This document shows, in pieces, positions 39,741 through 40,568 of a DNA stretch of 64,000 nt. A model generated the notes under the pieces. That model did not search any database. It had not been told where the DNA came from and saw nothing but the letters and a program-made list of their open reading frames with translations. Origin of the DNA: Escherichia phage AV112; sequence record OR352942.1; one strand, given 5' to 3'. A program made the translations under genes and the position numbers. Numbering within the stretch: position 1 is the first letter of the stretch; each line of letters opens with the position of its first letter.

Positions 39741-39816
39741 TGGTCGAGACAGTAGGGGTCGAACCTACGACCTAGGACTTAGAAGGTCCTTGCTCTTCCT
39801 TCTGAGCTATGCCTCG
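39741..39816 (-). tRNA. tRNA-Arg (anticodon TCT), CCA encoded
   Basis: Manual fold: acceptor CGAGGCA/TGTCTCG, D-arm GCTC..GAGC, anticodon loop CTTCTAA, T-arm GTAGG-TTCGACC-CCTAC. Confidence 0.8.
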
Positions 39817-39820
39817 GATT

Positions 39821-39895
39821 TGGCGGACATGCATGGATTCGAACCATGGACCAATTGATTAACAGTCAACTGCTCTACCACTGAGCTACACATCC
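39821..39895 (-). tRNA. tRNA-Asn (anticodon GTT), CCA encoded
   Basis: Manual fold: acceptor GGATGTG/CATGTCC, D-arm GCTC-AGTGGTA-GAGC, anticodon loop CTGTTAA, T-loop TTCGAAT. Confidence 0.75.
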
Positions 39896-39899
39896 AAAT

Positions 39900-39986
39900 T
39901 GGTTGGGAGTGATGGAGTCGAACCACCTGAGTCGCAATGACAATGGATTTACAGTCCACACCGCTACCTCTACGGGATAACTCCCC
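39900..39986 (-). tRNA. tRNA-Tyr (anticodon GTA), long variable arm, CCA encoded
   Basis: Manual fold: anticodon stem GTGGA/TCCAT, loop CTGTAAA, about 15-nt variable arm, T-arm GGTGG-TTCGACT-CCATC; pair 1:72 appears as G-A, so the 5' end is uncertain by 1 nt. Confidence 0.6.
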
Positions 39987-39995
39987 AAATTAATT

Positions 39996-40070
39996 TGGTG
40001 GCCCTGGGTGGAATTGAACCACCATCTGGCGATTATGAGTCGCTTGCTTGAACCTTCCAGCTACAGGGCC
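39996..40070 (-). tRNA. tRNA with anticodon CAT (Ile2/lysidine type or elongator Met), CCA encoded
   Basis: Manual fold: acceptor GGCCCTG/CAGGGCC (1:72 paired, so not initiator), anticodon loop CTCATAA, T-arm GGTGG-TTCAATT-CCACC. Confidence 0.7.
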
Positions 40071-40071
40071 T

Positions 40072-40147
40072 TGGTGCTGATTGACGGAATTGAACCACCG
40101 ACCTTCTCATTACAAGTGAGTTGCTCTACCTACTGAGCTAAATCAGC
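40072..40147 (-). tRNA. tRNA-Thr (anticodon TGT), CCA encoded
   Basis: Manual fold: acceptor GCTGATT/AATCAGC, D-arm GCTC-AGTAGGTA-GAGC, anticodon loop CTTGTAA. Confidence 0.8.
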
Positions 40148-40152
40148 AAAAC

Positions 40153-40242
40153 TGGCGGAGGCGATAGGATTTGAACCTATGAGTCGCCGGAGCGACTGCC
40201 GGTTTTCAAGACCGGTGCATTAAACCACTCTGCCACGCCTCC
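40153..40242 (-). tRNA. tRNA-Ser (anticodon TGA), type II, CCA encoded
   Basis: Manual fold: acceptor GGAGGCG/CGCCTCC, anticodon stem CCGGT/ACCGG, loop CTTGAAA, long variable arm, T-arm ATAGG-TTCAAAT-CCTAT. Confidence 0.8.
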
Positions 40243-40244
40243 AG

Positions 40245-40318
40245 TCTCCATACAAGGATTTGAACCTTGGACCTCCTGATCCCAAATCAGGCGCTCTACC
40301 AAACTGAGCTACACGGAG
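40245..40318 (-). tRNA. tRNA-Pro (anticodon TGG), no encoded CCA; 2 nt upstream of tRNA-Ser
   Basis: Manual fold: acceptor CTCCGTG/TATGGAG, D-arm GCTC-AGTTTGGTA-GAGC, anticodon loop TTTGGGA, T-arm CAAGG-TTCAAAT-CCTTG. Confidence 0.8.
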
Positions 40319-40328
40319 TAAATTAAAT

Positions 40329-40402
40329 TGGAGCGGATAATGAGAATCGAACTCACATCATCAGATTGGAAGTCTGAGGTAATGCCATTATACGATATCC
40401 GC
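40329..40402 (-). tRNA. tRNA-Gly (anticodon TCC), CCA encoded
   Basis: Manual fold: acceptor GCGGATA/TATCCGC, anticodon stem TCAGA/TCTGA, loop CTTCCAA, T-loop TTCGATT. Confidence 0.75.
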
Positions 40403-40407
40403 AAATT

Positions 40408-40494
40408 TGGTGCGAGAAGTGGGACTCGAACCCACAAGGAAATCATTCCGCAGCATTTTAAGTGCTGTGCCTTTACCAATTTGACCATTCTCGC
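40408..40494 (-). tRNA. tRNA-Leu (anticodon TAA), type II, CCA encoded
   Basis: Manual fold: acceptor GCGAGAA/TTCTCGC, anticodon stem CAGCA/TGCTG, loop CTTAAAA, long variable arm, T-arm GTGGG-TTCGAGT-CCCAC. Confidence 0.8.
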
Positions 40495-40495
40495 G

Positions 40496-40568
40496 CTGGG
40501 AATAAAGGACTCGAACCTTTGCATCCTGGAATCAAAATCCAGTGCCTTACCAACTTGGCTAATTCCCA
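40496..40568 (-). tRNA. tRNA-Gln (anticodon TTG), no encoded CCA; 1 nt upstream of tRNA-Leu
   Basis: Manual fold: acceptor TGGGAAT/ATTCCCA, anticodon stem CTGGA/TCCAG, loop TTTTGAT, T-arm AAAGG-TTCGAGT-CCTTT. Confidence 0.8.

Follow-up and report, generated by a model that had tools for sequence, protein, structure and literature searches.

The DNA under study, a stretch of 64,000 nucleotides referred to here as the window, accommodates ten tRNA genes on its minus strand between positions 39741 and 40568. This region is very probably the tRNA operon of a T-even coliphage (Tevenvirinae) of the T2L/RB3 type, in which closely packed genes, processed from a precursor, would serve both codon supply and the evasion of host defences, and in which tRNA-Tyr carries a derived mismatch.

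Composition, neighbours and relatives of the array

ARAGORN returns, in order of transcription, Gln(ttg), Leu(taa), Gly(tcc), Pro(tgg), Ser(tga), Thr(tgt), a CAT-anticodon tRNA, Tyr(gta), Asn(gtt) and Arg(tct). All ten exceed the gathering score of 29 of the Rfam tRNA covariance model (RF00005), nine of them with 59–73 bits (E values 1e-10 to 1e-14) and Tyr with 30.9 bits, and the array is far beyond chance. An earlier, sequence-only reading had listed ten minus-strand tRNAs; ARAGORN and Rfam agree exactly with its anticodons and coordinates, and both scans accept the Tyr and Asn candidates with the anticodons claimed. Apart from these genes, the 64-kb window contains no match that attains the gathering score of any Rfam family.

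Table 1. Features of the tRNA array and of the RNA genes that follow it, in order of transcription
Feature	Coordinates	Strand	Evidence and remarks
tRNA-Gln(UUG), positions 1–73	40496..40568	-	Rfam 67.4 bits; U1-A72; CCA not encoded
tRNA-Leu(UAA), class II, CCA encoded	40408..40494	-	ARAGORN; Rfam 59.3 bits
tRNA-Gly(UCC), CCA encoded	40329..40402	-	ARAGORN; Rfam 63.3 bits; 98.6% identity to T4
tRNA-Pro(UGG), positions 1–73, CCA not encoded	40245..40318	-	Rfam 66.8 bits; 100% identity to T4
tRNA-Ser(UGA), class II, CCA encoded	40153..40242	-	ARAGORN; Rfam 62.6 bits
tRNA-Thr(UGU), CCA encoded	40072..40147	-	Rfam 70.1 bits; 93% identity to T4
CAT-anticodon tRNA	39996..40070	-	ARAGORN; Rfam 59.9 bits
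tRNA-Tyr(GUA), class II, A73, CCA encoded	39900..39986	-	ARAGORN; Rfam 30.9 bits
tRNA-Asn(GUU), CCA encoded	39821..39895	-	ARAGORN; Rfam 72.6 bits
tRNA-Arg(UCU), CCA encoded	39741..39816	-	ARAGORN; Rfam 64.9 bits
rnaD homologue (T4 'species 2' small stable RNA)	39624..39739	-	Alignment to annotated RB3 and T4 rnaD
rnaC homologue (T4 'species 1' small stable RNA)	39478..39617	-	Alignment
G+C-rich hairpin, then U-run	39401..39429	-	Seen in sequence; fold -21.3 kcal/mol (39395–39440)

The ten-tRNA array is already known. The region matches Escherichia phage AV113 at 100% identity, and the GenBank record of that phage already lists every one of the ten tRNAs; the clusters of T2L, RB1 and RB3 were described by Brok-Volchanskaya et al. 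in 2008 (PMC2330249; AJ884578). At least 80% of the region is covered in 457 phage records. In RB3 the ten genes recur in identical order, with rnaD and rnaC behind them and without segB. The Gln, Leu, Gly, Pro, Ser and CAT genes are 100% identical to those of RB3, followed by Tyr (97.7%), Arg (96%) and Thr (92%), so that nine of the ten share 92–100% identity with the RB3 or T2 copies. RB3 and AV113 differ in several respects: tRNA-Asn is only 82% identical, the AV113 Tyr has a C72-to-A change and a second private substitution, and the middle part of rnaD diverges. T2 deviates further: it has no Thr gene, and an ORF separates Ser from the CAT tRNA there.

The T4 tRNA region occupies the same position, with the same flanking ORFs and with rnaD and rnaC downstream, and six of its tRNAs are orthologous: Gln, Leu, Gly, Pro, Ser and Thr display 89–100% identity to T4. 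Gln marks the lower end at 89%, Ser is 95.6% identical (100% to T2 and RB3) and Leu is 100% identical to its counterparts in T4, T2, T6 and RB3. In contrast, the CAU (Ile) and Arg tRNAs of T4 are different sequences, 61% and 60% identical to the AV113 genes, which are of the T2/RB3 type (100% identity to T2 and RB3 for the CAT tRNA, 96% for Arg). The equation of the first seven genes and Arg with the eight T4 tRNAs therefore holds at the level of anticodons and for six close orthologues, but orthology to T4 does not extend to the CAT and Arg genes. Analogously, Tyr and Asn are additional relative to T4, where segB occupies the slot between the CAU tRNA and Arg, yet T2L, RB1, RB3 and hundreds of sequenced relatives carry them as a rule. 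The AV113 record shows no CDS between the CAT tRNA and Arg, and segB is absent.

The array sits between the ORFs corresponding to trna.4–trna.2 and the rnaD and rnaC homologues, the genomic position that it has in T4. The upstream ORFs measure 186, 381 and 288 nt (186, 411 and 288 nt in T4), and farther upstream lie a dNMP kinase and a 57A-like gene, a setting that matches the 57A/gene 1 neighbourhood of T4. The rnaD homologue begins 1 nt past the Arg CCA. Its companion rnaC contains the T-arm-like GGTTCGAATCC and gives a weak tRNA-like covariance match at 39481–39573. The hairpin with its U-run is a probable intrinsic terminator of the RNA operon, as judged from its fold; a consensus terminator scan did not flag the hairpin, at 39406–39429, because of an internal mismatch. 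Promoter-like sites are no more numerous than in shuffled sequence, and the promoter scan thus singles out no transcription start.

The genes are separated by spacers of only 1–13 nt, the one between Thr and the CAT tRNA measuring 1 nt. CCA is encoded in eight of the ten genes; direct reading of the ends shows that it is absent from Gln and Pro. At the Gln-Leu junction, G73 of Gln is followed by a single nucleotide, C (40495), and by position +1 of Leu; at the Pro-Ser junction, A73 of Pro is followed by the two nucleotides CT and by position +1 of Ser. Both junctions, one and two nucleotides long as had been proposed, are identical to those of T4. A difference lies in the Ser and Ile genes of T4, which lack an encoded CCA, whereas the AV113 Ser and CAT genes carry it. 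Classical work on T4 established that dimeric tRNA precursors are cut by RNase P and trimmed at the 3' end, CCA being added by a host enzyme. By analogy, the whole AV113 array would be transcribed as a single precursor and cut by host RNase P and 3' exonucleases; Gln and Pro would be freed from Gln-Leu and Pro-Ser dimers and then receive CCA from the host CCA-adding enzyme.

Decoding capacity and the CAT tRNA

Comparison of heuristic phage ORFs with just 42 E. coli genes shows that the codons AGA (6.9-fold), AUA (5.0-fold), ACA (3.4-fold), UCA (3.0-fold), UUA (2.7-fold), GGA (2.6-fold), CAA (1.6-fold) and CCA (1.3-fold) are more frequent in the phage, and ATG less so (0.74-fold). For amino acids, the phage-to-E. 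coli ratio is 1.71 for Tyr and 1.62 for Asn, the two highest values, and 1.61 for Lys. Eight of the tRNAs would thus read A-ending codons used 1.3–6.9 times more in the phage, provided that the CAT tRNA is counted as an Ile2 species reading AUA, and Tyr and Asn would serve the pair of amino acids that the phage over-uses most relative to its host.

The CAT gene most likely encodes a tRNA-Ile2 that depends on lysidine for reading AUA. Its identity to an E. coli gene annotated as tRNA-Ile(CAT) in RefSeq is 81.6%, as against 63% to metT and metU, and it shares with the former the whole acceptor stem and the 17-nt anticodon arm. The acceptor pairs read GC GC CG CG CG TA GC and include C4-G69 and C5-G68, two pairs that were reportedly identified as TilS determinants by Ikeuchi et al. 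in 2005. An elongator tRNA-Met, suggested by the encoded CAT anticodon and by the label that ARAGORN, the GenBank record and the 2008 description (PMC2330249) attach to the gene, is improbable: besides its closer resemblance to tRNA-Ile(CAT), the phage over-uses AUA and under-uses AUG, and the slot is occupied in T4 by a known tRNA-Ile. The label 'tRNA-Met' is probably wrong, and Ile2 is the likelier identity. A role as initiator is ruled out by the G1-C72 pair and by the lack of the run of three G-C pairs in the anticodon stem.

Proposed role of the tyrosine and asparagine tRNAs in anti-defence

Beyond supply, Tyr and Asn may also serve as replacements for tRNAs cleaved by host defences, a role suggested by their homologues. 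PtuAB, the nuclease of Septu and retron-Eco7, cuts tRNA-Tyr (PMC13096335, PMC11555353), and AriB of PARIS cuts tRNA-Lys and tRNA-Thr and secondarily tRNA-Asn (PMC12409363). The tRNA-Tyr of T6 rescues infection from Septu (Chihara et al. 2026, PMC13096335). In the same study T2, which has Tyr, is resistant to Septu and T4, which lacks it, is sensitive; the T6 Tyr gene is the genetic determinant of escape, and deletion of the tRNA region raises Septu sensitivity. The T6 tRNA is itself cut by Septu and acts by dosage (PMC13096335), so that protection depends on the level of expression. A tRNA-Tyr of the T5 type counters retron-Eco7 (PMC11555353), and the variants of tRNA-Asn, Thr and Lys in T5 act against PARIS (PMC12409363). 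The anti-Septu role of the Tyr gene has thus already been demonstrated experimentally in the T6 homologue, and the finding as stated contains nothing new in this respect.

From these T6 and T5 homologues a comparable role can be inferred for the AV113 Tyr and Asn. The T6 Tyr gene is 95.4% identical to that of AV113, with the same variable arm save for the last base and with the GUC|A cleavage site and a 4-nt connector in common. It differs in having G1-C72 and segB directly downstream, which drives tandem amplification of Tyr. As AV113 has no segB at this locus, amplification of the T6 type is not possible in cis. T5-like phages harbour a Tyr gene of the same family, approximately 82% identical and alike in its variable arm and 4-nt connector. 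The T5-type region shares with AV113 the logic of supplying tRNAs that defences deplete, but belongs to an unrelated phage family and has more than 20 tRNAs and other neighbours; AV113 lacks tRNA-Lys.

The AV113 Asn is a distinct allele, its divergence from the T2/RB3 gene (82% identity) including compensatory stem changes. Positions 36–41 read UAAUCA and match the motif preferred by AriB, and the allele may therefore not be a nuclease-resistant variant.

A simpler account, in which all ten tRNAs only adjust the tRNA pool to the demands of an AT-rich phage proteome, Tyr and Asn having no part in anti-defence, is unlikely. It draws on the usage ratios of Tyr, Asn and Lys, which head the amino-acid comparison, and on the strong enrichment of A-ending codons; moreover, the AV113 Tyr retains the Septu motif and Asn the AriB-like motif, so that neither looks nuclease-resistant. 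On the other hand, T4 grows well on defence-free hosts although it has neither Tyr nor Asn, and the Tyr homologue of T6 determines escape from Septu (PMC13096335). The two roles are compatible with each other, and a combination of supply and anti-defence is the preferred reading.

Acceptor mismatch and connector of tRNA-Tyr

In tRNA-Tyr, G1 (G39986) stands opposite A72 (A39904), followed by six Watson-Crick pairs, A73 and CCA. The anticodon loop is CUGUAAA (7 nt, GUA) and the variable arm of 15 nt, with a 3-bp stem, resembles that of E. coli tyrU. The mismatch noticed in the sequence-only reading is real, but the doubt that it cast on the 5' end is unfounded: the Tyr genes of T6, T2 and RB3 are 95–98% identical, and relatives have the identical 5' sequence together with C72, so that the mismatch arises from the 3' strand and shifting the 5' end is no remedy. 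The T2, T6, RB3, rV5-like, T5-like and Klebsiella-phage copies all have G1-C72, a pair present in 27 of 30 distinct members of the family. A72 occurs in four GenBank records only (AV113, RPN187, p000y and ENT3), and IMG/VR yielded no A72 copy of Tyr as against 84 contigs with C72. A relaxed scan for A72 variants brought up only tRNAs for Gln and Pro, in which U1-A72 is a normal pair. G1·A72 is thus derived, having arisen in a small clade through a point substitution of C72 by A, and does not mark a novel type of gene.

The effect of the substitution is probably neutral to mildly weakening, and it could reduce the amount of the AV113 Tyr or its charging. An intact 1-72 pair favours binding of elongator tRNAs by EF-Tu, and G1-C72 is among the features by which E. 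coli TyrRS recognizes its substrate. These known roles of the first pair lend some plausibility to a stronger interpretation, in which G1·A72 together with the second private substitution, at 39928, impairs stability, binding to EF-Tu or charging to the point that the allele is decaying and contributes little. Both private substitutions fall at structural positions, the predicted fold is approximately 3.4 kcal/mol less stable than that of the RB3 Tyr, work on T6 already calls this tRNA family relatively unstable, and the variant is rare (four GenBank records, no IMG/VR contigs). Against this, the six remaining acceptor pairs, the other stems, A73, CCA and the anticodon loop are all intact. Furthermore, A72 has been maintained in three related isolates that come from different studies and turns up again in ENT3, whose background is unrelated; it is therefore at least tolerated. 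A decaying allele is thus possible, though it is not the favoured outcome; a neutral to mild effect is preferred. The rare G1·A72 allele is a natural variant for gauging the weight of an intact first pair in a phage anti-defence tRNA.

A second peculiarity is shared by the whole family. Four nucleotides, UAUC (39976–39979), connect the acceptor and D stems of tRNA-Tyr, as against the canonical two, U8 and N9 (PMC7609411). With the 4-nt register the D stem of the family is 99.2% paired and shows compensatory changes; the canonical register with a 2-nt connector was rejected, as it leaves merely 53.3% paired. Across the 30 distinct members the cloverleaf is 98.5% paired, with compensatory changes in 19 of 24 pairs, and RNAalifold independently gives the same fold. 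The Rfam alignment of Tyr, which proposes a 5-bp acceptor stem starting at 39984 and two deletions, was discarded since covariation within the family extends to all seven acceptor pairs. With the Rfam tRNA model, relatives that have G1-C72 likewise reach no more than 31–35 bits, and the FelixO1-like copy falls below the E=0.01 level; the low score of the AV113 Tyr is therefore due to the family-wide connector and not to the mismatch. A tRNA-Sec-like identity was likewise dismissed: the Sec model slightly beats the tRNA model on relatives, yet its 34–35 bits fall short of the threshold of 47, and a GUA anticodon, an acceptor stem of 7 bp and a T stem of 5 bp speak against it.

The family with the 4-nt connector extends over T-even, rV5-like, T5-like and FelixO1-like phages and E. 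coli plasmids of approximately 95 kb. A first IMG/VR scan, based on the anticodon arm and T loop, retrieved mostly unrelated environmental Tyr genes and provides a reference set for connector length only. The scorer used for connector length is crude and mis-registers E. coli tyrU, its figures of 70% and 7% being approximate. No published description of a conserved 4-nt acceptor-to-D connector in the coliphage tRNA-Tyr family was found.

That the Tyr candidate might be a pseudogene or a tRNA-like element and not a functional tRNA is very improbable. Such a view could appeal to the marginal Rfam score (30.9 against a threshold of 29), to the non-canonical connector combined with the mismatched 1-72 position, and to the inconsistent public labels, which range from Tyr to tRNA-OTHER, Val and Pseudo-GTA, some copies being unannotated. 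It is opposed by the near-complete pairing of the family cloverleaf with its compensatory changes, and by the expression of the T6, T5/SP15 and Klebsiella-phage homologues, for which rescue needs an intact Tyr anticodon and intact stems. The marginal score and the inconsistent labels stem from a real non-canonical connector of a functional tRNA family.

A more speculative proposal, to which only a low probability is assigned, holds that the connector is functionally meaningful and alters handling by defence nucleases, modification enzymes or RNase P relative to the host tRNA, and that the recurrent G1·A72 (AV113 clade and ENT3) is adaptive and not a product of drift. The connector could interest structural biologists working on tRNA and improve the annotation of phage tRNAs.

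The array as a T-even tRNA operon

In the 64-kb window ARAGORN calls ten tRNA genes and no more; all are on the minus strand, and their anticodons and order (see table) match exactly those derived by hand in the sequence-only reading. All ten, Tyr and Asn included, pass the Rfam tRNA model: nine score 59–73 bits, and Tyr, at 30.9 bits, narrowly exceeds the gathering score of 29. Direct reading of the gene ends confirmed the proposed T4-style pairs: encoded CCA is absent from Gln and Pro and present in the other eight genes, and 1 nt separates the Gln discriminator base from Leu, 2 nt Pro from Ser. 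The same reading bears out the A72 facing G1 in Tyr.

The region matches Escherichia phage AV113 (OR352943; Tevenvirinae) at 100% identity. The record of that phage annotates all ten tRNAs, and its name is used here; 961 phage records match the region, with single-place coverage of at least 80% in 457. RB3 (AJ884578, the deposit accompanying the 2008 SegB paper; PMC2330249) has the identical ten-gene order followed by rnaD and rnaC, and the T2L, RB1 and RB3 clusters, tRNA-Tyr and tRNA-Asn included, have already been described (PMC2330249). The array is a T-even tRNA operon, previously published and annotated, and an ordinary finding; for Tyr, the most unusual of its genes, experiments in close relatives have addressed function.

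Features of the operon (window coordinates) and identity of its genes to those of T4 and T2/RB3, in transcription order
Feature	Coordinates	Strand	T4	T2/RB3
tRNA array	39741-40568	-		
Gln(UUG), Leu(UAA), Gly(UCC), Pro(UGG), Ser(UGA)		-	89-100%	89-100%
Thr(UGU)	40072-40147	-	89-100%	89-100% (T2 without Thr)
CAT tRNA (CAU)	39996-40070	-	61%	100%
Tyr(GUA)		-		
Second private Tyr change	39928			
Asn(GUU)	39821-39895	-	not in T4	82%
Arg(UCU)		-	60%	96%
rnaD homologue, after Arg	39624-39739	-		
rnaC homologue, after rnaD	39478-39617	-		
G+C-rich hairpin with U-run, ~50 nt after rnaC	39401-39429	-		

The flanks are shared with T4, with trna.4-trna.2-like ORFs upstream and rnaD and rnaC downstream. 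Between the CAU tRNA and Arg, T4 carries the GIY-YIG homing-endonuclease gene segB, whereas AV113 has Tyr and Asn, which are additional as proposed. The earlier equation of the first seven genes and Arg with the eight T4 tRNAs holds for six; the CAT tRNA and Arg are different genes sharing the anticodon alone with their T4 counterparts. Furthermore, T4 Ser and Ile lack encoded CCA, whereas AV113 encodes it on both.

Across T-even relatives, the 3' half of the array varies as a mosaic hot-spot: it reads CAU-segB-Arg in T4, Tyr-segB-Arg in PST (locus L215) and Tyr-segB in T6 (L003), T2 (L004) lacks Thr and has an ORF following Ser, and L149, an IMG/VR T-even contig, has an eleventh gene, His(GUG), with Asn and Arg as its neighbours. 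Tyr, Asn and His belong to the queuosine tRNAs, which have GUN anticodons and number four. FelixO1-like phages carry Asn-Tyr-Asp genes. The preferred SegB cleavage site lies inside the T2L tRNA-Asn gene (PMC2330249).

Downstream stand homologues of rnaD and rnaC, which are small stable RNAs of T4. The middle ~45 nt of AV113 rnaD are swapped for unrelated sequence. rnaC is near-invariant across AV113, RB3 and T4, bears a T-arm-like GGTTCGAATCC and gives a weak tRNA-Sec covariance match (16.6 bits). The strong hairpin beyond is probably the operon terminator; a consensus terminator scan did not flag it, as its stem is interrupted by a 2x2 internal mismatch.

The tRNA-Tyr gene: connector and G1·A72 mismatch

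The low Tyr covariance score is family-wide and has a cause other than the mismatch: G1-C72 relatives also score only 31–35 bits, and the FelixO1-like copy falls below E=0.01. Members of this coliphage family have a 4-nt connector between acceptor and D stems (UAUC, UAGU, UAGA, UAUU, UAAU or UAUA). In an alignment of 30 distinct sequences, five of them chosen for showing this connector, the corresponding cloverleaf is 98.5% paired, with compensatory changes in 19 of 24 pairs, and the D stem is 99.2% paired; forcing the canonical register, which was rejected, lowers D stem pairing to 53.3%. Unguided RNAalifold predicts the same fold, and T5-like copies, chosen by variable arm, likewise show a compensatory CUG/CAG stem. 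Among 111 distinct reference phage-contig Tyr genes, a crude scorer assigns a canonical connector to ~70% and a 4-nt one to ~7%.

Two nucleotides are canonical, the only exceptions listed in a 2020 review being tRNA-Pyl and some allo-tRNAs (PMC7609411), and no description of a 4-nt connector in phage tRNA-Tyr was found in the literature. This connector of a widespread family is the sole feature not found there, a structural curiosity that can mislead annotation and not a new system. GenBank phage records label the gene tRNA-Tyr, tRNA-OTHER, tRNA-Val, tRNA-Pseudo-GTA, 'Undet' or not at all, probably because of the non-canonical connector.

The same family (G1-C72, connector UAGU) occurs in an Asn-Tyr-Thr trio on E. 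coli plasmids of ~95 kb (for example NZ_AP018798.1 63607-63693; also IMG/VR loci L131-L213). The plasmid trio is present in 269 of 5,426 complete E. coli genomes, none of which has the Tyr family on a chromosome; size and content suggest that these plasmids may be P1-like phage-plasmids.

As regards the mismatch, the 5' end or function of Tyr had been marked for a check. The 3' end reads CCCC-A-CCA, with G1-C72, in T2, T6, RB3, rV5-like O157 typing phage 14, T5-like GSP044 and Klebsiella phage Roth17, and CCCA-A-CCA in AV113; the 5' end is therefore not misplaced, and the mismatch is a derived C72-to-A substitution on the 3' strand, a rare allele. A72 is limited to AV113, RPN187, p000y and Enterobacter phage ENT3 (an unverified record), the last in a different sequence background. 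IMG/VR holds no exact A72 form against 84 contigs with C72, and a relaxed scan for A72 variants returned unrelated Gln and Pro tRNAs only. The second private change, G to A, is otherwise seen in PST only.

EF-Tu binding should suffer from a 1-72 mismatch, and perhaps TyrRS recognition too. The predicted stability loss from both changes jointly is ~3.4 kcal/mol. The effect of G1·A72 is rated as neutral to mildly deleterious; that A72 recurs in ENT3 shows it to be at least tolerated. The ENT3 gene (L216, PV358084, about 1148-1235) belongs to the same family but differs in its anticodon stem and has a connector of 5 nt, UAUUU; it receives no ARAGORN call, and the record is without annotation.

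Probable expression, codon supply and anti-defence roles

By analogy with classical T4 work, the operon, whose gene content, spacing, CCA status and synteny are direct observations, would yield a single polycistronic precursor including rnaD and rnaC, processed by host RNase P and 3' exonucleases through dimeric Gln-Leu and Pro-Ser intermediates, with CCA added to Gln and Pro by the host enzyme.

Supply and anti-defence are both supported as components of array function. Relative to 42 annotated K-12 genes, 90 heuristic phage ORFs are enriched 1.3–6.9-fold in the A-ending codons that eight of the tRNAs read, and Tyr (1.71x) and Asn (1.62x) show the highest phage-to-host usage of the twenty amino acids. 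Septu PtuAB cleaves the tRNA-Tyr variable arm and T6 tRNA-Tyr, 95.4% identical to that of AV113, rescues infection; T2, with a Tyr gene, is resistant, whereas T4, without one, is sensitive (PMC13096335). AV113 Tyr retains the GUC|A cleavage motif of T6, and protection would therefore be by dosage, as in T6, not by resistance. In T6, Tyr amplification is driven by SegB; AV113 has no segB beside Tyr, so amplification of this type is unavailable in cis. Retron-Eco7 is neutralised by T5-type tRNA-Tyr of the same family (PMC11555353). Among host tRNAs, PARIS AriB cuts those for Lys and Thr and, as a secondary target, that for Asn; a combination of T5 Lys, Thr and Asn variants neutralises it (PMC12409363).

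The CAT tRNA and the Asn and Thr alleles

The best match to the CAT tRNA in the 5,426 genomes is a gene labelled tRNA-Ile by RefSeq (81.6% full-length identity, with identical acceptor stem and 17-nt anticodon arm), against just 63% identity to metT/metU. Its acceptor stem includes C4-G69 and C5-G68, which we take to be TilS determinants, and phage codon use relative to the host is 5.0-fold for AUA and 0.74-fold for AUG. On these grounds the gene is most likely Ile2, reading AUA, and the label 'tRNA-Met' was probably assigned by default. Its D-loop begins with G and ends with C, as do those of the identical T2 and RB3 copies; A14 and A21 are near-universal there.

The Asn allele is unlike that of T2, RB3, p000y and L149 (82% identity), with compensatory differences from T2/RB3 in the anticodon and T stems, and is common to IMG/VR locus L160 only. 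The 3' part, where SegB cuts in T2L, differs too. Positions 36-41 read UAAUCA, the motif favoured by AriB in host Lys and Thr, and UAAGCG in T2/RB3. In a comparison of the AV113 Thr gene and loci L002 and L245, T-even tRNA-Thr has UAAUGA there, host thrU has UAAUCA, the AriB cleavage context, and Thr genes beside the plasmid trios have UAAGCA or UAAGCG; positions 39-40 are thus precisely where many phage Thr and Asn genes depart from their host counterparts.
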